Virus record (IMG/VR): IMGVR_UViG_3300044824_000100
Span: 1-64,000 of that record
From: a virus
Lineage: Duplodnaviria; Heunggongvirae; Uroviricota; Caudoviricetes
Strand: one strand, 5' to 3'
Length of the DNA stretch: 64,000 nucleotides
Shown here piece by piece: positions 3,047 to 48,665 of this stretch. Numbering within the stretch: the first letter of the stretch is position 1; every line of letters starts with the position of its first letter. Below the pieces are notes generated by a model that searched no databases, was not told the origin of the DNA, and saw only the letters and a program-made list of their open reading frames with translations. The translations under genes were made by a program, and so were the position numbers.

Positions 3047-3376
3047 TTAGTTGCCTTGCTCCCAGTGATACTTTCTATGGCAATTAGAACAGAGTATGTC
3101 GCACTTGGCAATTTCAAGGAGGATCGTCTCCTTATTACATCTGCCATGTGCCATCTTAGCTATTTCCATATCCTTTTTACTAGGATCTCTATGATGAAAG
3201 TCTAAACAAGCTGGATGGTCTTCTTGGCATTTGGTGCAGGATTTACCTAAAAGCACTTCCTGCTTCAGCCATTTCTTTATCTCATGGCGCTTATTTTGCT
3301 GCCTAATCCTTCTGTATTCGGAGTTTTCTTTATTCCACTTCTTCTGATATGCTTTGATTTTCTTTTTGGAACTCAT
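3047..3376 (-). CDS. HNH endonuclease (free-standing homing-endonuclease-like)
   Basis: CxxC...HH...CxxCH zinc-finger/HNH signature (CTKCQEDHPACLDFHHRD ... CSNCHRKYH); AT-rich, basic. Confidence 0.75.
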   Translation of the reverse strand: MSSKKKIKAYQKKWNKENSEYRRIRQQNKRHEIKKWLKQEVLLGKSCTKCQEDHPACLDFHHRDPSKKDMEIAKMAHGRCNKETILLEIAKCDILCSNCHRKYHWEQGN

Positions 3377-3422
3377 AATATAATCTCTAATAGATTATAT
3401 CAGGTCCATTGATTGGACTAAG

Positions 3423-3514
3423 TGGTCCACCCGCTCAGAATCGAACTGAGTATCGACACCAATCTAGTGCTCAAAAGAAGGTATAAGCTTCTGACCCTAC
3501 CTAAGGTCGGGTGG
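3423..3514 (-). tRNA. tRNA-like gene, 92 nt, atypical (possible anticodon UAU; long variable region)
   Basis: Minus strand: perfect 7-bp acceptor CCACCCG/CGGGTGG, discriminator A, encoded CCA, T-arm CTCAG-TTCGATT-CTGAG, anticodon arm AGAAG-CTTATAC-CTTCT with U33/A37. D-arm does not fold canonically. Confidence 0.45.
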
Positions 3515-3530
3515 ATTTGTATATTCTACC

Positions 3531-4022
3531 TTAAAATTCGTCCGGCCCAGTGCTTAGTTCTTGACGAACTTGCATCAGCGCCTTACCAAGAAGGTTCTGG
3601 CCGGTGCCAACTCCACCCTTCTCACCAGTTCCCCATACCTTGTCGTAAGGAGAATCCTCGTAGATGAGGGCGTCGCTAGTCGACAGCAAAACTTCTTTTA
3701 ATTTCAAGCTGTTACCAAATTTAGCCCTGAGAGCATCCAGCATGACGTCGTACTTAACATCATCCCAGTCCGAGCGTAGAGTAACTACTCGACCCATACG
3801 CTTTGCATCAAGCGGGGTCGAAGCCTTACGAATATCTTCCTGCTGACCTGTGTCAAGCGTCTTCATCGCAGCGAAGTAATGCTCCGTTGTTGGCCATACT
3901 TGCCCGTCGATCTCATATGGGCCTTCGAAGAAATTTGAGAAGCAACCATACTGCTCCTTATCGCTTTCACTCCAGAAGAAAATCTTTTGTCTGCTCATGT
4001 TACACCTTCCAATATTTATCAA
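3531..4022 (-). CDS. NADAR-domain protein (YbiA/DUF1768-like N-glycosidase / ADP-ribose processing family)
   Basis: Alignable to E. coli YbiA: FFWSESD..YGCFSNFF...W.TTEHYFAAMK...AKRMGR...LRAKF...WGTG..G.G.N.LGKALMQVRQEL. Confidence 0.8.
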   Translation of the reverse strand: MINIGRCNMSRQKIFFWSESDKEQYGCFSNFFEGPYEIDGQVWPTTEHYFAAMKTLDTGQQEDIRKASTPLDAKRMGRVVTLRSDWDDVKYDVMLDALRAKFGNSLKLKEVLLSTSDALIYEDSPYDKVWGTGEKGGVGTGQNLLGKALMQVRQELSTGPDEF

Positions 4023-4212
4023 CGTACTGACCCGTCATGTCATGACCACCTAGACCAATGTCCCAACCGGGACCTAGCACCTTAAGCATCACTAGGAAGT
4101 CTATGAGGTCGTAGACGTGTGCCATCCTTCTACCTCTGAGACTCTCCCATTCCTCCTGGTCCTTGTTCAGCGGCACCTCCCAGTCGTAGTCGTCCCACGC
4201 CATGCGGCTCAA
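4000..4212 (-). CDS. hypothetical protein
   Basis: 70-aa ORF between AAA ATPase and NADAR genes, start codon adjacent to upstream stop. Confidence 0.3.
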   Translation of the reverse strand: MSRMAWDDYDWEVPLNKDQEEWESLRGRRMAHVYDLIDFLVMLKVLGPGWDIGLGGHDMTGQYVDKYWKV

Positions 4213-4214
4213 CG

Positions 4215-5207
4215 TTACATTCCTAGACCGAGTGAACGACTCTCCTCGAAGTTCTTCTTGAACTTCTTAGAATGCGCTACCAGCTCTTCGATGACCTGCT
4301 TATAGCTCTTGTCATGCAGCTCGCTGCGAACTGCAACTTCCTCCAAGTGGGCGATACTGAAGTCCTCAGTACCTTTCATGCCAATACATTCCTTTTCCTC
4401 GTCAGTGAGGTCGCGCTTTGAGATGAAACCCAAGAGCAGTATTCTCTCTGCATGGTTAGGGGGAGAAAGTGCAAGCATAAGGTCGAAACGACCTGGACGA
4501 TCTGCGAGCGACTGGAGCAAATTCTCAGGATGATTGGTGGTAGCCACGATGAACGTGGGAAGCTTGAATGTTACGCCTACGCCGTCGAGCAGGTTGAGAA
4601 GGCCAGAGTCAATAGGAGCGTGACCGTGATCCCCGTCGCGCTCTCCTCCACCAATGTCCTCGATGATGAGAATGAGGCGAGTGCACTCAGTGGTGTACTC
4701 CGAGCGTGTAGTAAGGAAGCGACATACGGAGTCTGCCTCGATGTCGGACGTGGGCCAGATCATAACGACTGTACCGACATCCTCATTCATCGCGTCGCCG
4801 CAGAACTTCTCGATAGCAGAGGTCTTACCCATGCCAGGTTTGGAGTAGAGCAGAACTCCTCGTTTCTTGGGACGACCTAGCTTCTCGTATACGTGCAACT
4901 TACTGAAGAAGGTCTTGGCTTCGTGCAGGATCTGTTTAGTGCTGTCCACAGATTCGAGAAGGTTGCGAAGCTTCAGCTCAACCTTCGATGTTGCGAGGCC
5001 AGCAGCAGTCTCAACCAGGGTGTAGATACCTGGTCTGATCTCGTACTTCTTGTCTTCCTCTGCACGCTCATACTTCATCTGGATGATCTGCTCTTCGTTC
5101 TGGAAGCAGAGATCAGACTCGGGAAGCTCCAAGACTTGTCCCTCAACAAGTTCCTTGAATCGAGTAATCTTCTTGATTTTAAATCTACCTTCGGTGTTTT
5201 CTGCCAC
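4215..5207 (-). CDS. AAA+ ATPase (classical AAA clade, FtsH/Cdc48-like ATPase module)
   Basis: Walker A LLYSKPGMGKTS, Walker B LILIIEDIGG, sensor-1 TTNHPENL, arginine finger region DRPGRFD. Confidence 0.85.
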   Translation of the reverse strand: MAENTEGRFKIKKITRFKELVEGQVLELPESDLCFQNEEQIIQMKYERAEEDKKYEIRPGIYTLVETAAGLATSKVELKLRNLLESVDSTKQILHEAKTFFSKLHVYEKLGRPKKRGVLLYSKPGMGKTSAIEKFCGDAMNEDVGTVVMIWPTSDIEADSVCRFLTTRSEYTTECTRLILIIEDIGGGERDGDHGHAPIDSGLLNLLDGVGVTFKLPTFIVATTNHPENLLQSLADRPGRFDLMLALSPPNHAERILLLGFISKRDLTDEEKECIGMKGTEDFSIAHLEEVAVRSELHDKSYKQVIEELVAHSKKFKKNFEESRSLGLGM

Positions 5208-5211
5208 GTGA

Positions 5212-5490
5212 TTACCTTCCCTTTATGCGATCTTTATACCCGTTCATTTTCCGAGTCTTAGATATATTTGCTCTGCGAACTTCGCCCATTATGCTGACCT
5301 TATGGAATCTCCTGCGACCACCGTTGTCCTTATATTCCATGGCGGCGTTGTCTGCATCGAACACGCTCATCTGCCAAGACTTCTTGGACGCAAACCTGGA
5401 CTCGCTTATACTGTTTATCTCTAAACCATCCCCCGGATCTTCCTGACGATAGTCTGCCCAGCTTCTGCGCTTCCTCTTCTTACGTGCCAT
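5212..5490 (-). CDS. hypothetical basic protein
   Basis: Listed ORF trimmed to internal Met (MARKKRKRR...) that removes the 100-nt overlap with the upstream ORF. Confidence 0.3.
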   Translation of the reverse strand: MARKKRKRRSWADYRQEDPGDGLEINSISESRFASKKSWQMSVFDADNAAMEYKDNGGRRRFHKVSIMGEVRRANISKTRKMNGYKDRIKGR

Positions 5491-5716
5491 CGCTAACGGA
5501 TCCCAGAAATCGACTAACCATGGCCCTGGTCGAGACGTGATACGCTTGCTTAGACACGCCAAATATGGCGTCGTCTGCACCGCAGTCGTGCATCCACATG
5601 GCGTGGGAACCGCACGTGAACTCTTCTACTAACCCAGATACATGGTAGTTACGAGTCTGCACTCGGTACTTCTTGAGTACCTCGTTGTCTTCTAGAGTGA
5701 TCTTTCTTATATTCAC
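5480..5716 (-). CDS. hypothetical protein
   Basis: 78-aa ORF, start overlaps DUF1653 gene stop. Confidence 0.3.
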   Translation of the reverse strand: MNIRKITLEDNEVLKKYRVQTRNYHVSGLVEEFTCGSHAMWMHDCGADDAIFGVSKQAYHVSTRAMVSRFLGSVSDGT

Positions 5717-6051
5717 TTGTCTTCCAGTAGTTTGAAGCGAGGCATGCCACCATCTTCGGAGTCCACCATGACGTCCGAAGTGAACTCCTTAAGAGTCCTC
5801 ACGTAGTAGGTACCATGCTTTTCGTTCATGTAGACAACATAAGGCTTCCCGTCATCGCAGTGTGCTGCAGTGAACAGCACCACGTAGATTCCGCCCTTAT
5901 AATGTCGGTACCTTCCAGGTCTTATCATGGAAGGCCGCTGATCATTTCCAGTAGTTTTTCGGCCAGTGGGTAGCAAGCTCCAGTGACAAACAGACCAAAT
6001 ATACCTAGATATTTGAAGCCTGCGATATTCACTAGCACCAGCGCCGCACAC
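5713..6051 (-). CDS. DUF1653-family protein
   Basis: GRYRHYKGGIYVVL...H....KPYVVY....G..YVRTL..F matches the DUF1653 signature. Confidence 0.65.
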   Translation of the reverse strand: MCGAGASEYRRLQISRYIWSVCHWSLLPTGRKTTGNDQRPSMIRPGRYRHYKGGIYVVLFTAAHCDDGKPYVVYMNEKHGTYYVRTLKEFTSDVMVDSEDGGMPRFKLLEDK

Positions 6052-6086
6052 GCTATGACAATGAGTGTTGCTTTGTTCATGAATCT

Positions 6087-7562
6087 TTATACGTTCAGAT
6101 TCGCAAGAAGTCTCGCTCTGATTTCAGAGAGACTCTCATCTCGCAGGAACTTCCCGTTGAGGTAAACCGGTTGTAGCAAGCCCTTCTTTTCCTCAGCAGG
6201 AGTGACCTGTTGACTGAGAGTAAAATCTTCGTTCACTCTGAGGAGTCCCTTAGCTGACTTCTTGACGCCGTTGTCGGTTTTTGGGTTCTTATACATGTCC
6301 ACAGGAACTCCGTTGATCACACCGTACGTAGCTTTTAAGGCCATGCCGAACGTGTCTCTGGTGTTGTACTGGTAGGTGTAAGAACCGATGCCAAGCACGA
6401 CGTTGGTGGAAGCAAAGCCTTTAGCCTTGAGACCAGCCATGATTTGCTCAGCACGTTCCAGAGTGATAGAGTCCCCGTAGATGAGACCGACGTGTGGGTC
6501 AAGGCGTTTGTATCCTCTAGACGTTAACGAGCCTCCGAACGTATCCCAGAGCACCTCGATTGAACCCTTGTATTGAGGTGATCCGACAGGCGCTTCGGGG
6601 TCACCGCAGATGATCTTCACTGGGTCGCCGGAATCTGGGCGAAACACCAGCTTACCTGGACGAGCCATGATAACTGGCTTGAGCTCTGCTGCCTTCACTG
6701 TGAGCGTATCCCAGTAGTCCCAGGTATCGGAGACAACCGATAAAACTGCTGACGTGGGGTAGACGTCTTTTAAGAGGCGCAAGAAGGTCTGAACTTCAGT
6801 TTCCTGACCTCCCATGCACATGACAGAGTGTTCCGTAGCGGGAACAGAGCCACCAATGAGCTCCTTCTCGCAGTCTGCGTTGTAGTAGTCTTCGAGGTAA
6901 TCGATCGATGGGATCGTGTCCGTTCCAGTGAAGCTCAATAAGTGAGCTGCGCCAGAGCGGGTAGCAGATTCTGGGCCATCCATGCCGCGGAACGAGAAGT
7001 CGTGTCCTTGCCACTGAACAAATCCGGCGACAAGTTCAGGATCGGTTTCAACAGCTGCTGCTTGAAGAACCTTACGGTACTCAAAAGCGATGGTGGCGTT
7101 AGTGGACTGCTTCCAGGTGAGAGACGATAGGATAGTCTCCAAGAAGTTGGGCAGCCAGAAGAAGTCTTCGAACCCATCCGAGTTAGTGATGGTCCAAGGT
7201 GGAACACCGATCGGAACCAAGGTTCCTTCTGGAAGCGCCTTGACGAGGACTGGCAGGAAACCAAGATCATGTAAGCGTGCGATGTGGTCGTACGAGATGG
7301 CACCTGGTCCAAGGTAGTTATCGATGCGTCGCTTGTAGCGAGCGAGAACCTTGTCTTTTGGTTGACTGAAGAAGCTCTCTTGCCACGTCTGCTGAAGCTC
7401 CTTCAGAGCTCCTTGCAAGCCGAAGTTCACTGTTGCCTTATAGCGAGGATCGCGAGAGCTACGGAAGGTAGCGTTGGTATAGACCTTCTGCGAACCCTTA
7501 GGGTATTGACTGCGATGGTCGACCTTGTATCCGTCCTTCAAATTAACTGCAATAAGCTTCAT
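6087..7562 (-). CDS. nadV: nicotinamide phosphoribosyltransferase (NamPRT/NadV-like; or Namat-type ADPR-PP:nicotinamide transferase)
   Basis: 491 aa, type II PRTase of the Nampt family (GTDT, SVPATEHS, YGDS motifs region); same family as phage KVP40 NadV. Confidence 0.9.
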   Translation of the reverse strand: MKLIAVNLKDGYKVDHRSQYPKGSQKVYTNATFRSSRDPRYKATVNFGLQGALKELQQTWQESFFSQPKDKVLARYKRRIDNYLGPGAISYDHIARLHDLGFLPVLVKALPEGTLVPIGVPPWTITNSDGFEDFFWLPNFLETILSSLTWKQSTNATIAFEYRKVLQAAAVETDPELVAGFVQWQGHDFSFRGMDGPESATRSGAAHLLSFTGTDTIPSIDYLEDYYNADCEKELIGGSVPATEHSVMCMGGQETEVQTFLRLLKDVYPTSAVLSVVSDTWDYWDTLTVKAAELKPVIMARPGKLVFRPDSGDPVKIICGDPEAPVGSPQYKGSIEVLWDTFGGSLTSRGYKRLDPHVGLIYGDSITLERAEQIMAGLKAKGFASTNVVLGIGSYTYQYNTRDTFGMALKATYGVINGVPVDMYKNPKTDNGVKKSAKGLLRVNEDFTLSQQVTPAEEKKGLLQPVYLNGKFLRDESLSEIRARLLANLNV

Positions 7563-8362
7563 ACTTTGTATCCGTCCTCGTTTTTGGTTAAGCTATTGGT
7601 AGTATACAACTTGTCGATGCCGTTAGCCAGCAGATGGTCGCGACCCTTACTGAAGAGTCCGTGAGTGACACATAGGTCGACATAAACTGGAGTGTTCGCA
7701 CTCTTTAGCAGCTTAGCGACGCTTACGAAGGTAGCTCCGCCGTCACACAGATCATCTATGATGAGAAACTTAGTGTTGAACAAATCTGTCCTATTGAAAG
7801 GGTTGCCTTCTACGATCTCGTGACCGGTGATTGCACCCGTGAGCTGGTTGCGGGTCTTATCGCATACTACCTTAGGGATATGAGCCGTACCACTATCGTG
7901 GTAGCGATCGGCTGCCCCCTTATCTGGGAACACGATGAAGTCAGGCTCCGATGATTCGATGACATCGGAATGGAAGTCGCTGGCAGGGATATTAATGAAG
8001 CGTTTGATGAGCTTTGCCGTGCGTTTGGCATTATGTGCGTCCACTGATGATACAGTGGTGAAGTTCATCGAGTTGATGAGATCGGCGAACACGACGAGAT
8101 TGAACGTGGATTCGTTGGTGACATCCTTATCCTGCCTAGCGTAAGGTAAGTAAGGTACATGCAGGCTGACGTTCTGGTGCTTGATGAGCTTCCTAAGCGA
8201 AAGGAGGTCGATGATTTCTCGCTCACTCTCGAAGCGCCAGTCGATGCTGACACTGCTACACTGCAATATGTCTTGTGGGAGTTTCCACACCTGAGACGTG
8301 CCATCTGGAAAGATGGTGGGCTGCAGGATGAAGTTGTGATTACCGACGATTACTGTGATCAT
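7559..8362 (-). CDS. prs: ribose-phosphate pyrophosphokinase family protein (Prs-like; candidate ADP-ribose pyrophosphokinase)
   Basis: PRPP-binding loop FLIIDDLCDGGATF, N-terminal flexible loop region; start moved to MITVIVGNHNF Met with GAGGA SD 5 nt upstream. 4-nt overlap with nadV. Confidence 0.85.
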   Translation of the reverse strand: MITVIVGNHNFILQPTIFPDGTSQVWKLPQDILQCSSVSIDWRFESEREIIDLLSLRKLIKHQNVSLHVPYLPYARQDKDVTNESTFNLVVFADLINSMNFTTVSSVDAHNAKRTAKLIKRFINIPASDFHSDVIESSEPDFIVFPDKGAADRYHDSGTAHIPKVVCDKTRNQLTGAITGHEIVEGNPFNRTDLFNTKFLIIDDLCDGGATFVSVAKLLKSANTPVYVDLCVTHGLFSKGRDHLLANGIDKLYTTNSLTKNEDGYKV

Positions 8363-8534
8363 GCATGTCCTCGAATATGATTGGGTTAATGTTCCTCTGG
8401 CACCCAGCTCCATCGGAGTTGTACGTACCGTCTTGGTTGTGACAGTAGTCTACCTCACCCACCCTAGATGTGGTGCATCTTGCAACTGATACAAGTAGCA
8501 TAAAAAGTAATACGAATCTCATGACGTAAAGCAC
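8340..8534 (-). CDS. small predicted secreted protein
   Basis: N-terminal signal-like segment MRFVLLFMLLVSVARC; overlaps prs start region. Confidence 0.3.
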   Translation of the reverse strand: MLYVMRFVLLFMLLVSVARCTTSRVGEVDYCHNQDGTYNSDGAGCQRNINPIIFEDMHDHSNRR

Positions 8535-8746
8535 CTATCTGTTAGGTTATCAAGCCAATTCTTATAACCGTCTTGCACCCTTGTATCGGTGACTATGTAC
8601 CATGCGAGAGGATAGTAACCGCTATAATAGGTGAGTTGATGTGTCAACGGACATTCATTAAGCAGACATAGTTCTCTTTTACCATCTGATCTCATATGCA
8701 TCATGATGAGCTCGTCGAACCAATATAAATCTCCACAACTCTCCAC
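8519..8746 (-). CDS. hypothetical protein
   Basis: 75-aa ORF. Confidence 0.3.
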   Translation of the reverse strand: MESCGDLYWFDELIMMHMRSDGKRELCLLNECPLTHQLTYYSGYYPLAWYIVTDTRVQDGYKNWLDNLTDRCFTS

Positions 8747-8803
8747 AACTCTCTACGTCGTACATCCTGTAGGGAGGAGATAACTTCTGAAGATCAAGAT
8801 AGT

Positions 8804-9244
8804 TCAAAGTATGTAAACCCTCACTTCAGTGTTTCTAGATTCTTCTTCGATAATCTTAGATATGATGTCCCAGTTGCCACCGGCGAGACCAGCACCAATC
8901 TTTGGGATCGCAAATCCATCTGGCCATGATCGGATCAGATCGCGAATAACTTCCCTAATAGCCTGGTAAGAGACGTAAGGCCCTTCGTCTGGCTTTCCGT
9001 AGCGCTGCTGTGTAGCGCAATTGGCAATCTCTCGCCCTGAACCGTCACCGACCCCAAGTAGTTGTACATGACCGAGGCGCCACCCACAGGTATTATAGCG
9101 ATAGAGGTAGGCATCCCGAACCATTGGGTACTTTTCAGCGATTGCCTTAGCAATGCCAGAGCCGAAGCCTCCAGAGCAATTAACTCCGTGGGCAATTCTT
9201 TTCTCGTCGGAAGCAAAGATGTCTCCTTGTTTATAAACGATCAC
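8804..9244 (-). CDS. macro-domain protein (ADP-ribose / O-acetyl-ADP-ribose binding or hydrolysing)
   Basis: IVYKQGDIF...IAHGVNCSGGFGSGIAKAIAEKYP matches macro-domain N-terminal GD[IL]...VN..N..MG.GIA motif; size 146 aa. Confidence 0.7.
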   Translation of the reverse strand: MIVYKQGDIFASDEKRIAHGVNCSGGFGSGIAKAIAEKYPMVRDAYLYRYNTCGWRLGHVQLLGVGDGSGREIANCATQQRYGKPDEGPYVSYQAIREVIRDLIRSWPDGFAIPKIGAGLAGGNWDIISKIIEEESRNTEVRVYIL

Positions 9245-9453
9245 AAATCTATCTCCCTCTCGTACTCGGCAAATGTCATCAGCACGAAGCTAACACCCGC
9301 CATGAGTACTGCCACGCCCCAACCTTGAAACCCACCACCGATTAACTTGTATATGAGTGATCCAGCTCCAGCTCCCAGTCCAACTCCAACCAGTCTAGAG
9401 AATGAAGACCACATCGCGCGCTTGAACGCGCGCCTGCTAAATCGATGACCCAT
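9241..9453 (-). CDS. small membrane protein
   Basis: Gly-rich TM segments; 4-nt overlap with macro gene. Confidence 0.35.
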   Translation of the reverse strand: MGHRFSRRAFKRAMWSSFSRLVGVGLGAGAGSLIYKLIGGGFQGWGVAVLMAGVSFVLMTFAEYEREIDL

Positions 9454-9591
9454 CGTATTCTTATACTGGATACGTCAATATCAAGTTTAAGAATGATCTA
9501 AGTATGTCCGCAGACATAGCTAACGTATATGGCAATACCATGGTGAAGATCATGCTGATGGCAAAAATTCTCATGTATCCCATGTTACTCC

Positions 9592-9861
9592 CTACTGGGC
9601 TTCACCGCAGCTGCCGGGTGAGAGCTTGAGTTCACTCTCCTTGAATGTTTGAAAGATTGACTCACTCTTGCAAACCACGTTGACATCATAGATATCGTGC
9701 GTCAGGAGTACATCGGCTTGATGTAAGATAGCTTGCACCAGCCCGTGGCATCCCTTGTAGAAGCCACTCTGGATAGAGACGCAATCCTTAAAATGAAACT
9801 TAGGTTCAGTGGCTTGAGCAGGAATGCTCAGCAGTAGCAGAAGAAGCATCAGCTTTTTCAT
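9592..9861 (-). CDS. small secreted protein
   Basis: Signal peptide MKKLMLLLLLLSIPAQA, 5 Cys. Confidence 0.4.
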   Translation of the reverse strand: MKKLMLLLLLLSIPAQATEPKFHFKDCVSIQSGFYKGCHGLVQAILHQADVLLTHDIYDVNVVCKSESIFQTFKESELKLSPGSCGEAQ

Positions 9862-10273
9862 CTGTCTCTCCTAAGAGAATCTTGATGTACTTCTCTTTAT
9901 CTTTAACGTTATCGTCACTCAGGTGTTGCACCGCGGACAGTTTAAGGAGTACGTTTGTAACGCGAGCGTACTCTTCCTTAGACTTCATCATTACGAACCG
10001 GAACGTCTGGCTCTTGCCTTCGTAGTCCGTGTATACCAAGCCGCTCAAACCTACGTGAGCAGTCTCGCGGTCCTCGTCGGTGATCTCGCTGATCTTCTCA
10101 GCGTCTTCCAGGGTATGTCCGTAGGTTCCAACCTTGTACAAGTAGTCCTTATACTTCTCTTTGTTGATGGCCTTCTTCTCGCGGTTGTCCATCTCCTTCA
10201 CCTCTGCGGACAGGGAAGAGAACTCCTTCTGAATCTCGTTCATGCGTGCTCGGATCTCAATTTTGCGACTCAT
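9806..10273 (-). CDS. hypothetical coiled-coil protein
   Basis: 155-aa charged ORF. Confidence 0.4.
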   Translation of the reverse strand: MSRKIEIRARMNEIQKEFSSLSAEVKEMDNREKKAINKEKYKDYLYKVGTYGHTLEDAEKISEITDEDRETAHVGLSGLVYTDYEGKSQTFRFVMMKSKEEYARVTNVLLKLSAVQHLSDDNVKDKEKYIKILLGETDEKADASSATAEHSCSSH

Positions 10274-13702: not shown

Positions 13703-14848
13703 CTAACATGCAAACCTCTCGCCGGTAGGGAAGATAGGAATTCCGTAGGCACTGATATATTGATACTTCACCGTCAGTATTTTACCCTTCCACGTAGAGT
13801 GATCGTTGAGGAAGGTTACCAGCCTCTCTCTTGGACCTCGCATCTTAACGTCGAAGGCACACTTCTTGCAGACGCATGGAGCAGGATGCTCCGCTGTTGC
13901 CACCCTGCACTGGAATATGCCGCAGCCAGCATTCGTTCCGCGACCTTCCTTGATGGAAGTGATTGGCCATTCCGCATCTTGGAATTCCTTGATCTTTTGC
14001 AGGTGATAGGAACGCTTGCCTTCGTATAGGCTGTTAGCGTTTCTAGCCATACCGCCCTCGTAACCCAGTAGTAGGTAGTTCTCGAACGCGGCCAGCATTT
14101 CGTCTTCACTGCTAACAAGAACGGTATCTACGAACCTGACGTAGTTTAAGGTAGCTGTTCCTTTTTCGTAGGAGTGGAGGTCTCCGTACAAGCTGACTGT
14201 TCTGGCTCCAAATTCACCGACCATTCTTTTGTCATAGACGTGGTATTCAACCACTTCGTGTCCTGGCTTTGGCACTTCTTGTCTAATAAAGGAAGCAAGC
14301 TCTTCGAAGCGGTCCTTATAACTATGGTTGTACAATTCACCATCCAGCTCGTGACTACCTGTGGGATAGACATCTTCAAGCTCCTTCACAATGTGAGGCA
14401 TACTGGTAATGGGCTTTCTCGTTCTAGACCATAGGGTGCACTCACCATCTACTATGATTGCTAGACACCTGTGTCCGTTAAGCTTTGGTTGTATGTAGGC
14501 TGGATACTTGATCTTATGGCCATGGTCTGCGAACTTGTGGGCGAGCATGCAGTCGTACCCGCCATCTATATCTTTTTCGCCAGCCAGCGCCCGCGAGGCG
14601 TCTTCGACATATCCTTTTTTAATCTTTCCTTCCCACTTGGAAGTAGCTTCAGCAAGAGCTTGATCAGCTGGGCTCGTCTCGTTTGATCGTCCAACATTTT
14701 TTCCCACGCTGATAGTATCTGATGTACGCTGCTTTTTGCCATCTGTTTGCCCGTGGACGGTAATGATGGTGGATTTATCGACCCCAATGGTCCACTCTTG
14801 AATTTTGCCGGAACTGGTCCGCTTATATAGCGTAGGTAAAGTTTTCAC
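13703..14848 (-). CDS. lig: ATP-dependent DNA ligase
   Basis: Motif I KLNGHRC, III LDGELY, IV GYEGGMARN, V LQKIK; GTG start with GAGGA SD. Confidence 0.9.
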   Translation of the reverse strand: MKTLPTLYKRTSSGKIQEWTIGVDKSTIITVHGQTDGKKQRTSDTISVGKNVGRSNETSPADQALAEATSKWEGKIKKGYVEDASRALAGEKDIDGGYDCMLAHKFADHGHKIKYPAYIQPKLNGHRCLAIIVDGECTLWSRTRKPITSMPHIVKELEDVYPTGSHELDGELYNHSYKDRFEELASFIRQEVPKPGHEVVEYHVYDKRMVGEFGARTVSLYGDLHSYEKGTATLNYVRFVDTVLVSSEDEMLAAFENYLLLGYEGGMARNANSLYEGKRSYHLQKIKEFQDAEWPITSIKEGRGTNAGCGIFQCRVATAEHPAPCVCKKCAFDVKMRGPRERLVTFLNDHSTWKGKILTVKYQYISAYGIPIFPTGERFAC

Positions 14849-14882: not shown

Positions 14883-15740
14883 TTAGTCTGCGATGTGAAA
14901 GTTGGCTAGGATGCCTATGGTAGGACTATAGGCAGTTCCACCGTCTTCTTCAGCTGGATACATGGCGGTATTCAAACCTAAGACGTGACCTGCCTTATCA
15001 AACACAGGTCCACCGCTCATGCCAGGGAATAGCATCCCTCCAACGGCGCATTTAACTAGGAACGCATCGTTCATCACTGGGACTAGCACCTGACAGTTTA
15101 AGGTCTTTGAACCCTGTGGGTAGCCGCACGCAAGGACTTGTGCCTGAGGTTCGAAACCTGATTCCCATACCTCAGCAGCTGGAATATCACTGAAGTCGCT
15201 CTCGAGTAGACCCCAATCCATTCTTAGATTTACGCCGACCGGTTTAGAAGTGAGTCTGATCGTGCCGTCGTCGTTCTCCACGATGACTCTCTGCCTCTTC
15301 ATAACGCCGTTCTCGTCTACAAGGCAATGGGCTGCAGTCAAAACGTAGTTTGCACCGATGACAACGCCTGAGCAGAAGAAACCCTCGTCATTATACAGTC
15401 TCACCACCGAGCGATTCCAGTCGTATTTCTTTGCTGGGAGCAGCTTAGGAAGGTTTTTCTCTACTTGTATGCTAGAAACACCTTGTCTGGGGAGATTGCG
15501 GAGCAGCATGGTGAATAGGACACCGCACATGAGTAGCACCGCTGTCGTTTTTAGTGCAGCGAAAGTGAATCTATGAGCCATACTAATACACGCTAGTATG
15601 AATCTTGGGAGGACTTTTAGACCGGCTAGTGCCAACCCAGGAACTCTCTTAAGAGCAATCCAAGTTATCGTTGGTAACGCTTTCAAACGTAGATAGACCA
15701 ACGCGGGGACTGCCTTGAGAAGAGAGATTAGCTTTCGCAT
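14883..15740 (-). CDS. trypsin-like (S1) serine protease, membrane-anchored
   Basis: Catalytic His LTAAHC, Ser GMSGGPV, hydrophobic N-terminal segments. Confidence 0.8.
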   Translation of the reverse strand: MRKLISLLKAVPALVYLRLKALPTITWIALKRVPGLALAGLKVLPRFILACISMAHRFTFAALKTTAVLLMCGVLFTMLLRNLPRQGVSSIQVEKNLPKLLPAKKYDWNRSVVRLYNDEGFFCSGVVIGANYVLTAAHCLVDENGVMKRQRVIVENDDGTIRLTSKPVGVNLRMDWGLLESDFSDIPAAEVWESGFEPQAQVLACGYPQGSKTLNCQVLVPVMNDAFLVKCAVGGMLFPGMSGGPVFDKAGHVLGLNTAMYPAEEDGGTAYSPTIGILANFHIAD

Positions 15741-15790
15741 GAGGAACCTTTCGTGTGTTCCTCTAATTTTACCCCGAAACGCGTAAGATC

Positions 15791-16534
15791 TTATTTATGG
15801 AGGGTTTCTAGCACGAGTTTGCCCGTTGCTACGGCTGTTGCTTGCGACGTCCCTGTCATTCGACCTCTTCTACCGCCAGGCAAGGTCGATTCAACGTTGG
15901 TGCCAATTTCCCACCGAGTGACACGCCTTCCATAGTTGGAACTAGGACTGCGATCTTTATCGTGTCTCTCGTCAGTGTTTGGTAACTCTATGCTACCACT
16001 GACGGAATCTAAGTTGCCCACGCTTACGATCTTGGTGTCGTAACACGCAGGATAGTAGTCACACTCTTTATCGAGATCTGACTTCTCGTTGCCGGCAGCT
16101 ACAACTAGAGTGATGTGCTTAGTTAGCGCTTCCTTTATAACACCGTATTCACTCTCGCTGAACTCTGGTCCGCCACCGCTGATATTGATAAAGTTAACGT
16201 CAATGTTTACCGCATACTGCATGGCTTTCACCAAGTTGCGTAGATTCTCCTGTCCGGAGACCGTCTCGTCGTAGTATTTGATTGCCACAAGACAGTAGTC
16301 GCCGTCGCCTGCGTTAGACGCGATAAGCCCAGACACGTGCGTGCCATGGCCGTTCTCGTCTATGAGGGGATTTGGGTATCGTCTAGCGAATGACTTATGA
16401 CCGAACTTACAAAGGTGACTTACAGAGGGATCTATACCCGTATCGATAACAGCAATGGTGACAGTTTTAGCGCTCGCCGTCCTCATCGAGGCTATCATTA
16501 TCAGAGTTGTCAAAAACACCGTCGTCTTTTTCAT
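15791..16534 (-). CDS. subtilisin-like (S8) serine protease, secreted
   Basis: Signal peptide; catalytic Asp VIDTGI, His HGTHVSG, Ser GTSQATA. Confidence 0.85.
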   Translation of the reverse strand: MKKTTVFLTTLIMIASMRTASAKTVTIAVIDTGIDPSVSHLCKFGHKSFARRYPNPLIDENGHGTHVSGLIASNAGDGDYCLVAIKYYDETVSGQENLRNLVKAMQYAVNIDVNFINISGGGPEFSESEYGVIKEALTKHITLVVAAGNEKSDLDKECDYYPACYDTKIVSVGNLDSVSGSIELPNTDERHDKDRSPSSNYGRRVTRWEIGTNVESTLPGGRRGRMTGTSQATAVATGKLVLETLHK

Positions 16535-47117: not shown

Positions 47118-48665
47118 ATGCCTCAAGCCGTCTCACGCAGACAATATAGAATGATGATGGCTATCGTGCACGGCAACGTGAAGGACGGTCCTCGCGGACG
47201 TCCTCCCAAGTCTGTCGCTGCTAAATACACCGATCCAGGTAAAGACGCTGCAGAATCCAAGCATAACGATCGCGGCGGAACGTGGGGCGAGAAGCACCAC
47301 AAGAAGAACAAAGAAAAAGTTCAAGCAGATCGCATCAGCAGGAAGAAGTCCAAGAAGGAACTTAAGAAATCCTTTGAAGAGTATATGGAGAAGAAGCACA
47401 AGACCAATAACTGTGCAGCTGTCCTAGTTATGGATCAGCACAATAGAATTCTCCTAGGAACTCACAATAAGGGTGGCTTAGCATTCCCTGGTGGGCACTG
47501 CCATGAAGATGAAGGCTTTGAACAGGGTGCTATCAGAGAGGCCAGCGAAGAAACTGGTTGTCCTGTAAGGATCAGCGCCGAGATATTCAGAGGCAAGACC
47601 AACGGAAACAACACTGTTGTATACCTAGGCGAAATCGTTCATGGGAAGCCTAAAAACACCAAGAGCGATCACGGCAAAGAATCTATGACCGATTGGAAGT
47701 GGCACGAGATGGATGAGATCCCGTGGAAAGAACTTCGCGACTGTTGCAGAGCTCCTATCAGCGACTTTGTATCCAAGAGATTTGGAAAGTCTCTAAAGGG
47801 TATGATCGCTATGGAGAAGTTAGAAAAGAACATCATCCGCCAGAAGTCTGACGCTGTGTTTGAAGTAACACACGGAGATGCGCTAAGGCTCGTTGGCAAC
47901 GGCATGTTCAGAACCCTGCGCAAAGTTGTAGCAGGTATGCAGGACGAAGAGTTTAAGGATGTACAGATTGATACGTACACCATGAGCATCAGGAGACACA
48001 TGAGCGACGTGTACTCCGGCAGACTTAACGACGGGCATAAGACAGTTTATCAGTTCACCAACAAGTCACTTCCTGAGTTAACCGCAGCCTTGATGAGCGT
48101 GTTCGAATGGTACATGCCGGAAGATGAAAAAGAATTGCACATGCTGGAAGATGCATCGATCGACGATGATGCTGTTCACGGTGGATTGAATCACCTTATT
48201 GAAGAATACAAGCGCCACAACATAGGCGACATCTACGAAGAGATGGAATCGATCCGTGAGACCATGCGTAACGGAATGGCCGTAGACCTTCAACAAATTG
48301 AAGGTCGAATCATGAGTTTATTTGATAAGCTAGAGACAGTAGTTCATGACGTTGCAGGTAAGCATAACCAGCTTGCACAAGCAGTGGGAAAAGACATAGA
48401 CGAGCTCGAAGCAAAACTCAGAGAGCTGCAGAGTAAGATAAGCGACGAGCCAAAGATGCCTCAAACAGTAGAAGCGTTCTCTGCAAATCCTGCCAACAAG
48501 GATAAAGTTCACGACGAGTACTACTCGTACTTGACCAAGCCAAAGATTGAGATTGCTCCAAACGGCAAGATCACTATATCATTTGCCCGTGACTGGCAAG
48601 ACGAAGAGAAATCTAACTTTCTACACGATATGAGAGCAAGGGTTATAAACAAGGCGGGCAAATAA
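47118..48665 (+). CDS. Nudix-hydrolase-domain protein with long coiled-coil C-terminal extension
   Basis: Nudix box GGHCHEDEGFEQGAIREASEETGC in residues about 115-140 of 515. Confidence 0.7.
   Translation: MPQAVSRRQYRMMMAIVHGNVKDGPRGRPPKSVAAKYTDPGKDAAESKHNDRGGTWGEKHHKKNKEKVQADRISRKKSKKELKKSFEEYMEKKHKTNNCAAVLVMDQHNRILLGTHNKGGLAFPGGHCHEDEGFEQGAIREASEETGCPVRISAEIFRGKTNGNNTVVYLGEIVHGKPKNTKSDHGKESMTDWKWHEMDEIPWKELRDCCRAPISDFVSKRFGKSLKGMIAMEKLEKNIIRQKSDAVFEVTHGDALRLVGNGMFRTLRKVVAGMQDEEFKDVQIDTYTMSIRRHMSDVYSGRLNDGHKTVYQFTNKSLPELTAALMSVFEWYMPEDEKELHMLEDASIDDDAVHGGLNHLIEEYKRHNIGDIYEEMESIRETMRNGMAVDLQQIEGRIMSLFDKLETVVHDVAGKHNQLAQAVGKDIDELEAKLRELQSKISDEPKMPQTVEAFSANPANKDKVHDEYYSYLTKPKIEIAPNGKITISFARDWQDEEKSNFLHDMRARVINKAGK

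Follow-up and report, generated by a model that had tools for sequence, protein, structure and literature searches.

In the NARP1 pathway, the ADP-ribose pyrophosphokinase Adps turns ADP-ribose (ADPR), together with ATP, into ADPR-PP and AMP, and the nicotinamide ADP-ribose transferase Namat then combines ADPR-PP with nicotinamide to give NAD+. This two-gene system was described by Osterman et al. 2024, with structures given in PMC12774641 and PMC13586617. NARP1-AP, in which Adps and Namat are joined by the macro phosphatase Adpp, was described in January 2026 (Osterman et al., bioRxiv 10.64898/2026.01.28.702374), with Vibrio phage Gary as the test case. In RyDEP-NARP1, an RyR-domain glycosidase encoded inside the NARP1 operon converts 2'/3'cADPR to ADPR (PMC13232231). 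NARP2 (Nampt plus Nmnat-Nudix; NadV/NatV in KVP40) has the same overall purpose as NARP1, but its route runs through PRPP and NMN, where that of NARP1 uses ADPR-PP. The occurrence of NADAR genes beside phage NAD-salvage genes was remarked upon in 2022 (PMC9503650).

The region examined here lies within a 64,000 nt stretch (the window) of an uncultured myovirus of ~176 kb, and is probably an accessory NAD+ conflict cassette with a NARP1-AP core plus NADAR. The locus is a new instance of the described NARP1-AP, the adjacency of NADAR being the added element. The six domains named in the original prediction were all confirmed by Pfam or PHROG profile matches at the positions it gave, and all six genes are on the minus strand, but six small ORFs, counting the alternative one at 8340-8534, intervene so that they are not strictly consecutive (Table 1).

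Table 1. Features of the NAD+/ADPR locus and the distant Nudix gene
Feature	Position	Strand	Profile match or basis
NADAR, YbiA subfamily; predicted N-glycosidase freeing ADPR from N-linked adducts	3531..3998	-	PF08719, E 5.9e-39
70-aa ORF separating AAA from NADAR	4000..4212	-	no family matches
Classical AAA+ ATPase, Cdc48/NSF D2-like	4215..5207	-	PF00004, E 1.1e-7
Backbone ORF, 92 aa, overlapping the next	5212-5490	-	no family matches
Backbone ORF, 78 aa	5480-5716	-	no family matches
DUF1653 protein, 71 aa	5713..5928	-	PF07866, E 9.6e-16
Hydrophobic ORF of 51 aa in the gap between Namat and DUF1653	5925..6080	-	direct sequence reading
Namat (predicted)	6087..7562	-	PF04095, E 6e-36; PF18127
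Adps (predicted)	7559..8413, likely start 8362	-	phrog_619, E 7.8e-63
Alternative small ORF	8340-8534		
75-aa ORF separating macro from Adps	8519..8746	-	no family matches
Macro-domain protein, Adpp-like; predicted ADPR-1''-phosphate phosphatase	8804..9244	-	PF01661, E 5.1e-5
Nudix protein	47118-48665		PF00293, E 1e-12

Start sites were corrected by reference to an 8.3 kb Logan contig whose genes run in the same order and whose Namat is identical; its public gene calls place the NADAR start at 3998 (155 aa; ORF 3531-4022) and the DUF1653 start at 5928 (ORF 5713-6051). The true start of Adps is most likely the Met at 8362 (267 aa), judging by its match to the orthologues. From Adps through NADAR every gene abuts or overlaps its neighbour, the stop of the 51-aa ORF overlapping the DUF1653 start. 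Since this co-directional packing extends far past the cluster on the ORF map of the window, packing alone does not delimit an operon. Promoter-like and terminator-like sites across the cluster were in no excess over shuffled expectation. The 75-aa ORF is missing from the relatives L003 and L004, where the macro gene nearly abuts Adps, and is thus not conserved; the 70-aa ORF is kept in L004, L075 and L080. The Nudix gene, which had been suggested to be functionally linked to the cluster, is 38 kb away, flanked by the tail sheath gene and one for a virion structural protein, and so its position lends no support to such a link.

The Prs-like protein falls in phrog_619 together with the biochemically verified Adps of Gary and SPbetaL1. 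It scored below the cut-off of all eleven NCBIfam PRPP synthetase models (best 79 bits vs 296; TIGR01251 76.6 bits, cut-off 113), and its Pfam matches to Pribosyl_synth and Pribosyltran were sub-threshold with Pribosyltran_N absent, while a genuine phage PRPS in contig L102, serving as an internal control, passed all three Pfam PRPS domains. Neither collection, then, assigned it to housekeeping PRPP synthetase. In the alignment it retains ICP1 Adps residues F18, R87, H121, D161, K185 (essential; equivalent to K192, mutated in the NARP1-AP study), D212, D213, C215, D216 and F221, including those of the PP-loop and beta-hairpin; the numbering was verified against PMC13586617. It differs from ICP1 Adps at the adenine-contact positions F92, F223 and C197 (V, S and H, respectively), which are also variable among verified Adps. 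The protein is short, ending right past the conserved TTNSL motif in the Adps alignment; loss of the alpha11-alpha12 module at the C-terminus of PRPS is regarded as an Adps signature in PMC13586617.

The Adps stop overlaps the start of Namat, and the two genes are translationally coupled as in NARP1-AP. The closest solved structure to the window Namat is that of SPbetaL1 Namat (9W5X/9W5W, E 4.7e-155), with human Nampt at ~1e-57, and it shares 53% identity with SPbetaL1 Namat, 50% with ICP1 Namat and 32% with KVP40 Nampt. The adenine selectivity clamp R40, F392 and Y396 (PMC12774641) is represented by R, Y and Y, with the clamp motif GIGSYTYQYNTRDT, in which KVP40 Nampt differs, and the catalytic His is retained, as is the essential residue mutated as H243 in the NARP1-AP study. 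The failed PRPS models, the conserved ICP1 Adps residues and the Namat clamp bear out the earlier identification of this pair as NARP1. As a further difference from NARP2, an Nmnat is absent from the window, where the Nampt-family protein belongs with the Namats.

The macro protein falls in phrog_335 (E 2.4e-35), the family of Gary's verified Adpp and of the listed Adpps, and is 29-37% identical to the Adpps in Table S1 of bioRxiv 10.64898/2026.01.28.702374. Its His19 aligns with the essential H24 of Gary, and Gln79 occupies the position of the DarG catalytic K80, as Gln does in all aligned Adpps. Its gene is within two genes of Adps, the distance by which Adpps were defined in that preprint. 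The protein thus belongs to the verified Adpp family, has the essential His and does not have the catalytic Lys of DarG/TARG1, which makes NARP1 together with this macro gene a case of NARP1-AP; the proposed role of the macro protein as an ADPR-handling partner is plausible. The window differs from Gary in gene order (Macro-(small ORF)-Adps-Namat rather than Adps-Adpp-Namat), and protein identity to Gary is low (Adpp 29%, Namat 42%). The reading relies on family membership and the conservation of essential residues, each enzymatic step in the window phage being a prediction. The claim that the combination was not a described unit has been partly overtaken by the January 2026 description of NARP1-AP and by the NADAR-salvage adjacency noted in PMC9503650. 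Phrog_335 macros are common in phages that have no NARP1 next to them; phage 121Q, whose copy is the best homologue from an isolate, carries it near Nudix and head-tail genes. Furthermore, the same macro gene accompanies NARP2 in the relatives L164, L187 and L189, and since NARP2 uses no ADPR, the macro protein may have a NARP1-independent role.

The window NADAR shares the fold and ADPR-site residues of the AdfN/DarG1-type NADARs (PMC11825919, PMC11543638) and E. coli YbiA (PDB 2B3W). The PnNADAR contacts E43, K50, R79, W89, E125, D130 and W133 are kept (PMC11543638), with Lys at the position of R93. It has the YbiA-type Glu where DarG1 has Asp and T4 gp30.3 has His, and is a stand-alone bare domain like YbiA and phage AdfN, without an N-terminal DNA-binding extension. 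Only one phage NADAR in PMC11825919 is near the YbiA group. NADARs belonging to three or more sublineages lie directly against NARP1 genes (L017, L037/L083, L135 and L060). Among dereplicated public viral contigs, 10 of 53 Namat clusters have a NADAR within 10 kb (11/53 a macro gene) and 15 of 63 NADAR clusters have a Nampt-family gene within 10 kb, an enrichment judged against rough estimates of chance rather than computed nulls. Phage accessory genes tend to cluster anyway, which tempers these counts. In Herelleviridae, NADAR is not adjacent to NARP1. The intact binding site and the recurrent NADAR neighbours of NARP clusters are consistent with the suggested link of this protein to ADPR.

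That all six genes, AAA+ ATPase and DUF1653 included, evolved together as a single multi-layer NAD/ADPR counter-defence unit, as originally predicted, appears very unlikely. The order Macro-Adps-Namat-DUF1653-...-AAA-...-NADAR is indeed preserved whole in L003 and L004, but their flanks are syntenic too, so that the shared order stems from common descent. In other relatives the same slot holds NARP1, NARP2 (L164, L183, L184, L187 and L189), remnants or nothing. The AAA gene is present in 13 of 13 relatives examined, including every NARP2 relative and three that lack NAD genes altogether (L185, L186 and L188), and is therefore a lineage backbone gene and not a member of the unit. The 78-aa and 92-aa ORFs upstream of it are likewise backbone outside the pathway: most relatives, L186 and L188 without the cassette among them, have orthologues upstream of their AAA gene. 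An unrelated contig (L118) does carry AAA-NADAR-Macro-x-SIR2 with DUF1653 5 kb off, and in L102 and L123 an AAA gene is beside NadM-Nampt-NADAR-Macro. However, the window AAA, an unfoldase-like protein with 880 metagenome homologues, is nearer to its closest solved relatives, NSF and Cdc48/p97 (E ~1e-16), than to the L118 type (4e-8), and only 2 of 51 Namat clusters outside the window's lineage have an AAA-like gene within 10 kb of NARP1. DUF1653 has just one solved relative, the uncharacterised 3be3. Its gene adjoins NADAR in L175/L176 and comes directly after the Nampt-family gene in relatives of both the NARP1 and the NARP2 kind, yet among ~14 viral DUF1653 lineages only 3 have it near NAD genes.

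Ordinary salvage, with a PRPP synthetase supplying Nampt, a host NMN adenylyltransferase finishing from NMN and NADAR acting as a YbiA-type housekeeping N-glycosidase of riboflavin intermediates, is extremely improbable given the Prs-like protein's grouping with verified Adps and failure of the PRPS models. The clamp residues are missing from the L164 Nampt as from that of KVP40, relatives with a true Nampt pair it with Nmnat-Nudix and not with the window-type Prs-like gene, and riboflavin genes were not found among the window ORFs scanned. These points outweigh the passing of NF006629 by the Nampt-like protein, the NMN synthesis from PRPP that Namat retains in vitro (PMC12774641), and the similarity of NADAR to E. 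coli YbiA (49% identity) and TIGR02464, the riboflavin-intermediate N-glycosidase model (135 bits, cut-off 73.7). It is possible, though not likely, that NADAR and macro are independent anti-defence enzymes drawn near NARP1 by accessory-island clustering, with no metabolic channelling: NADAR would clear DarT1-type ADP-ribose from phage DNA as AdfN does, and macro some other ADP-ribose adduct or signal. Phage NADARs are proven anti-DarTG1 factors (PMC11825919), and all tested NADAR/YbiA proteins hydrolysed guanosine-ADPr in vitro, although that study saw no in vivo rescue from DarT1 toxicity by E. coli YbiA or T4 NADAR (PMC11125620). NADAR also occurs with NARP2 in L187, as macro does in L164 and L189, and outlasts NARP1 in L080; in the window it occupies a second variable spot ~2 kb from Namat with backbone genes between. 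Against such independence, NADAR lies between Adps and Namat or abuts NARP1 genes in the unrelated phages listed above, just as the proven feeders Adpp and RyDEP are placed (bioRxiv 10.64898/2026.01.28.702374; PMC13232231), and the weak scores of macro with DarG models are countered by its Gln79 and Adpp-type His.

We therefore favour the NARP1-AP core plus NADAR, and propose that the Adpp-like macro protein would take ADPR-1''-phosphate, which RES-type NADases generate, and strip off its 1''-phosphate. Adps would then move pyrophosphate from ATP to ADPR, and Namat would couple nicotinamide to the resulting ADPR-PP, refilling the NAD+ pool after depletion by SIR2-, TIR-, DSR- or RES-based defences. 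NADAR would most likely liberate ADPR from N-linked adducts such as ADP-ribosylated bases or small N-linked ADPR conjugates, so that a lesion or signal would be removed and a substrate for Adps gained. We infer this coupling from genomic context and by analogy with RyDEP: NADAR, wedged like RyDEP into NARP1 operons in some phages, may be an accessory hydrolase that supplies Adps with linear ADPR from an ADPR derivative, its 2 kb distance from Namat in the window being a difference. The NADAR-NARP1 association is the one testable lead to come from this locus.

The neighbouring Nampt-like and Prs-like genes of the window, judged from their sequences, are a NARP1 pair, in which the Prs-like protein is an Adps, predicted to make ADPR-PP from ADPR and ATP, and the Nampt-like protein a Namat that would join ADPR-PP to nicotinamide to give NAD+. 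The original prediction of NARP1 was thus borne out, by the Namat match, the selectivity clamp, the assignment to phrog_619 and the failure of the PRPP synthetase (PRPS) models. The Nampt-family protein matched 9W5X and 9W5W, identified as SPbetaL1 Namat (PMC12774641), with an E value of 4.7e-155 versus about 1e-57 for human Nampt, and was 53% identical to SPbetaL1 Namat and 50% to ICP1 Namat, whereas its identity to KVP40 Nampt, a true Nampt, was 32%. The clamp, which in SPbetaL1 comprises the SCL residue R40 and the two aromatic SCH residues F392 and Y396, is represented in the window protein by R37 and two tyrosines in the motif GIGSYTYQYNTRDT. Where the window Namat has this motif KVP40 Nampt carries GMGGGLLQQLDRDT, and at the same position the Nampts of KVP40 and of L164, a relative of the window phage, read GMGG(G/A)LLQQ. 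The catalytic His lies in the motif PATEHSVMC and aligns with H243 of the Namat of phage Gary, and VFRPDSGDP aligns with VIRPDSGDP around SPbetaL1 R306.

The possibility that the Prs-like ORF is a housekeeping PRPP synthetase, which would have undone the NARP1 assignment, was examined with profiles and at the level of residues and did not hold. One expected mark of an Adps is the loss of the C-terminal alpha11-alpha12 module of PRPS. The window protein has 267-284 aa and ends soon after a TTNSL motif, but archaeal PRPS, at about 286 aa, are just as short, so that length alone is not specific. The protein failed the curated PRPS profiles, including that of the N-terminal domain, which speaks against this identity. 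All 11 NCBIfam PRPP synthetase models scored the protein below cut-off (best 79 bits versus 296; TIGR01251, 76.6 versus a cut-off of 113), a Pribosyltran_N match was absent, and the other two Pfam PRPS domains stayed below their gathering scores. As an internal control, the genuine phage PRPS of L102, a contig from a large uncultured phage, passed all three Pfam domains. The window protein instead fell in phrog_619 (E 7.8e-63), the family that also holds the verified Adps of Gary (1.8e-82) and SPbetaL1 (2.1e-73), and by this family membership it groups with the phage Prs-like clade, apart from the cellular PRPP synthetases. For the alignment, the ICP1 Adps gene was taken from GenBank and its numbering matched to PMC13586617, in which the structure was solved. 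F18, R87, H121, D161, K185, D212, D213, C215, D216 and F221 of ICP1 Adps are all kept in the window protein; among them are the essential catalytic lysine (ICP1 K185, Gary K192), the acceptor residues R87, H121, D161, D212 and D213, and the Phe221 that ends the PP loop. The differences from ICP1, at F92, V195, C197, A218, S220 and F223, fall at positions that also vary among verified Adps.

Features of the window: strand, coordinates and profile matches
Feature	Strand	Coordinates	Profile matches
Band_7/SPFH protein	minus	943-2205	
109-aa ORF	minus	3047-3376	
NADAR	minus	3531-3998	PF08719, E 5.9e-39
AAA	minus	4215-5207	PF00004, E 1.1e-7
DUF1653	minus	5713-5928	PF07866, E 9.6e-16
51-aa hydrophobic ORF		5925-6080	
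Nampt family (predicted Namat)	minus	6087-7562	NAPRTase and NAMPT_N
Prs-like (predicted Adps)	minus	7559-8413	Pfam PRPS matches sub-threshold; phrog_619 strong
Macro	minus	8804-9244	PF01661, E 5.1e-5; phrog_335
ATP-dependent DNA ligase		13703-14848	
Trypsin-like peptidase beside subtilase	minus	14883-16534	PF13365; PF00082
Nudix protein	plus	47118-48665	weak match to a portal-fusion PHROG
Tail sheath (943 aa)	plus	50381-53212	N-terminal Ice_binding-like domain PF11999, E 1.4e-28

All six minus-strand ORFs originally proposed for the cluster, from NADAR to macro, are present at the proposed coordinates, and profile searches confirm their domains. Public annotation of an 8.3 kb Logan contig that has the same gene order and encodes an identical Namat places the NADAR start at 3998 (155 aa) and the DUF1653 start at 5928 (71 aa), which makes both genes shorter than first drawn. 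Six small ORFs are interspersed among the cluster genes, and the apparent gap between Namat and DUF1653 is occupied by the hydrophobic 51-aa ORF. Neighbouring genes abut or overlap from Adps to NADAR, the Adps stop overlapping the Namat start at 7559-7562. Sites resembling promoters or terminators were not above chance in this stretch. The tight co-directional packing extends far past the cluster and therefore marks out no unit. Just downstream of NADAR, the 109-aa ORF contains CxxC and HH motifs of HNH-like appearance on visual inspection and gave no Pfam match; since it is absent from the relatives L003 and L004, it may be a mobile endonuclease insertion.

The phage itself is tailed, and the window encodes a tail sheath, a ribonucleotide reductase and a DNA ligase besides one tRNA. 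No cultured phage is closely related to it: its DNA ligase is at most 34% identical to those of isolates, and a nucleotide search of positions 3400-9500 against 50,697 phage records gave no match. The nearest relatives are found among IMG/VR contigs, at about 176 kb. The trypsin-like peptidase and subtilase adjoin the ligase gene, and the tail sheath carries an Ice_binding-like domain. A functional link between the cluster and the 515-aa Nudix protein had also been suggested. We found no support for it: the gene sits in the virion module, flanked by the genes for a virion structural protein and for the tail sheath, and the protein fits the packaged virion Nudix proteins of PMC9503650.

The macro gene extends the NARP1 assignment. 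RES-domain defence proteins (aRES) cleave NAD+, releasing nicotinamide and ADPR-1''-phosphate. The latter is no substrate for Adps, and the macro phosphatase Adpp returns it to ADPR, forming NARP1-AP together with NARP1; a macro gene lies within two genes of the operon in 15% of NARP1 phages (10.64898/2026.01.28.702374, a preprint of January 2026). The window macro and the verified Gary Adpp are both in phrog_335 (window E 2.4e-35), and the window protein is 29-37% identical to the six listed Adpps, inside the range found among those Adpps. Its His19 stands in an invariant alignment column with Gary H24, the mutation of which to Ala inactivated Gary Adpp (10.64898/2026.01.28.702374). With a match to Poa1p (6LFQ, E 4e-5), the window macro groups by sequence with the Poa1p/TARG1-like branch and the Gary Adpp family. 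That it acts as an ADP-ribosyl glycohydrolase of the DarG/TARG1 type is unlikely, because Gln79 stands opposite the catalytic Lys80 of T. aquaticus DarG (5M3I), equivalent to K84 of TARG1, and because it scored 46 bits against DarG models with a cut-off of 250. Gln is found at this position in all aligned Adpps. We conclude that the window macro is Adpp-like, a predicted ADPR-1''-phosphate phosphatase. Between it and Adps the window has a single small ORF; in L004 the distance is about 130 bp and no intervening ORF was detected. Two points call for caution. Macros of phrog_335, close homologues included, are also common in phages without a neighbouring NARP1, and in the relatives L164, L187 and L189 the same macro gene accompanies NARP2 (Nampt plus Nmnat-Nudix). 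No homologue of aRad1, a small aRES inhibitor, was found in the window by tblastn or profile. The suggestion that the macro protein belongs to a multi-layer counter-measure is thus supported by phrog_335, the essential His and the position near Adps, but the claim that the gene combination had not been described fails for macro plus NARP1, which is NARP1-AP.

Comparison of 13 members of the lineage, window included, showed that these genes occupy a variable slot. NARP1 with macro, DUF1653 and NADAR is found in the window, L003 and L004. L080 has macro, only the last 45 codons of Namat (L080:3398-3532), AAA and NADAR, and L077 has an N-terminally truncated Namat remnant (L077:274-1164). The slot holds NARP2 in L164 (6291-9721), L183, L184, L187 and L189, with Nmnat-Nudix and a true Nampt that matches NAMPT_N strongly and shows the Nampt-type motif, and in L185, L186 and L188 it is without any NAD gene. 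Since NARP1, NARP2, decayed remnants or nothing are found in one slot, the NAD+ reconstitution modules of this lineage behave as cassettes that can be swapped or lost between conserved backbone genes. The AAA gene, to which a role in an NAD/ADPR unit had been ascribed, is present in 13/13 members including the three free of NAD genes, and that role is rejected: it is a backbone gene flanking the slot. It encodes a classical Cdc48/NSF-like ATPase with 880 metagenomic homologues; tblastn among isolates retrieved only two huge uncultured phages, and a metagenome scan with the AAA alignment only four loci. Upstream of AAA, orf78 and/or orf92 were detected in most of the 13 and neither in L184 nor L185.

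The Band_7/SPFH gene is kept downstream of the cluster and in L183-L189 is followed by the gene for a ClpP/NfeD-like protease, on the opposite strand, and one for a DUF2201 (VWA/metallopeptidase-like) protein, these three and AAA forming a conserved backbone block. Five relatives (L164:4159-5370, L184:237-1442, L187:144-1349, L188:4871-6160 and L189:1-987) encode an RtcB RNA ligase immediately upstream of the macro/NARP slot; no RtcB-sized ORF is present at the corresponding window position. DUF1653, for which there is one solved and uncharacterised relative, comes directly after the Nampt-family gene whether a relative has NARP1 or NARP2, and the cassette-free relatives lack it. Its tblastn search among isolates gave four weak matches. 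A scan of viral contigs centred on DUF1653 found NADAR nearby in 3 of about 14 lineages, which is suggestive and not significant; besides the window's own these are L118/L168 and L175/L176. The latter, jumbo-phage contigs of 364 and 388 kb, have NADAR and DUF1653 adjacent and divergently oriented near 9500-10100.

The window NADAR passes TIGR02464 and shares 49% identity with E. coli YbiA; the Glu in its last strand (LIYEDS) aligns with YbiA VEHT and PnNADAR E125. The residue at this place is Asp in the DarG1 type and His in the T4 gp30.3 type, and the window protein is neither; its sequence assigns it to the YbiA subfamily. Using contacts from the PnNADAR-ADPR structure (PMC11543638) and the 8BAU alignment, with a two-residue numbering offset, we found E43, K50, R79, W89, D130 and W133 kept and R93 replaced by Lys. 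NADARs are known as N-glycosidases on riboflavin intermediates. Every NADAR/YbiA tested hydrolysed guanosine-ADPr, and in vivo specificity is not predictable from sequence (PMC11125620); the phage NADAR AdfN, an enzyme that strips guanine-linked ADP-ribose from DNA, protects phage against DarTG1 (PMC11825919).

The NADAR-NARP linkage was assessed in 68 IMG/VR loci around Namat relatives and 80 around NADARs of a second sublineage, dereplicated at 90% identity; the NADAR scan used a subgroup alignment, the mixed NADAR alignment being too diverse. NADAR lay within 10 kb of NARP genes in 10/53 Namat clusters, eight of them outside the window's lineage, and macro in 11/53. Conversely, 15 of 63 NADAR clusters had a Nampt-family gene within 10 kb, six of them within 500 bp. 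The expected proximity of 2-4% is a rough estimate rather than a computed null, made from published genome-level frequencies (PMC9503650; 10.1101/2024.02.11.579819) and random placement. L037/L083 and L135 have NADAR between Adps and Namat; in L017 it comes immediately after Namat and in L060 immediately after Adps. Since the NARP-adjacent NADARs come from at least three sublineages, with mutual identities of 25-50%, repeated recruitment seems indicated. NADAR in neighbourhoods with NadV and NadM has been remarked before (PMC9503650), and a published test of the link was not found in the literature searched. Besides macro and NADAR, the recurrent same-strand genes within 4 kb of NARP1 (IMG/VR L003-L070) included, at 10 loci each, those for a metallophosphoesterase-like protein and for an unannotated one of about 146 aa, and further Nuc_deoxyri_tr2 (PF15891, seven loci), Thg1, an AAA_33 kinase, DUF6915 and WYL_2.

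For NADAR, then, the multi-layer reading is plausible, with the ADPR contacts kept and a recurrent place beside NARP genes, but three observations speak against strict coupling to NARP1: NADAR is found together with NARP2 in L187, persists in L080 after NARP1 deletion, and was not found near NARP1 in two Herelleviridae isolates. A correlation of NADAR with NARP1 over NARP2 within the lineage was dropped on account of L187. It is conceivable, if rather unlikely, that NARP-associated NADARs are a third class of feeder for phage NAD+ reconstitution, beside Adpp and RyDEP, a RyR-domain glycosidase. Such a NADAR would cleave an N-glycosidic ADP-ribose linkage to release free ADPR, which Adps and Namat would recycle to NAD+. 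Candidate substrates would be guanine- or cytidine-ADPr on nucleic acids, or the N-linked signals His-ADPR, N7-cADPR and canonical cADPR. As a weaker extension, DUF1653 might be an uncharacterised partner.

NADAR and macro also meet elsewhere. The unrelated locus L118:8740-15979 (IMGVR_UViG_3300033067_001587) has AAA, NADAR, Macro, a 128-aa ORF and SIR2 in a row; DUF1653 follows 5 kb downstream, and a Nampt-family gene is absent within 10 kb. In large uncultured phages, L102:4550-15012 (contig of 93 kb) and L123:2832-17289 (362 kb) have, in this order, AAA, Nmnat-Nudix, a P-loop protein, Nampt, adjacent NADAR and Macro, and a PRPP synthetase of full length, for which all Pfam PRPS domains pass. 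Such a cluster resembles a NARP2-type module that brings its own source of PRPP.

Taken as a whole, the region belongs by its sequence to the known NARP1-AP system and lies in an exchangeable NAD+ cassette. What is firmly supported is ordinary, one further NARP1-AP operon in an uncultured lineage that is apparently abundant in environmental metagenomes; variants that gained or lost the cassette in nature are available in this lineage for comparison. The macro phosphatase has already been shown to extend NARP1 (10.64898/2026.01.28.702374), and several NADAR sublineages are embedded in or beside NARP clusters about as often. If NADAR does feed NARP1, the reversal of N-linked ADP-ribosylation, or the degradation of an N-linked signal, would be tied to NAD+ repair, and one enzyme would both disarm a defence and fuel that repair.
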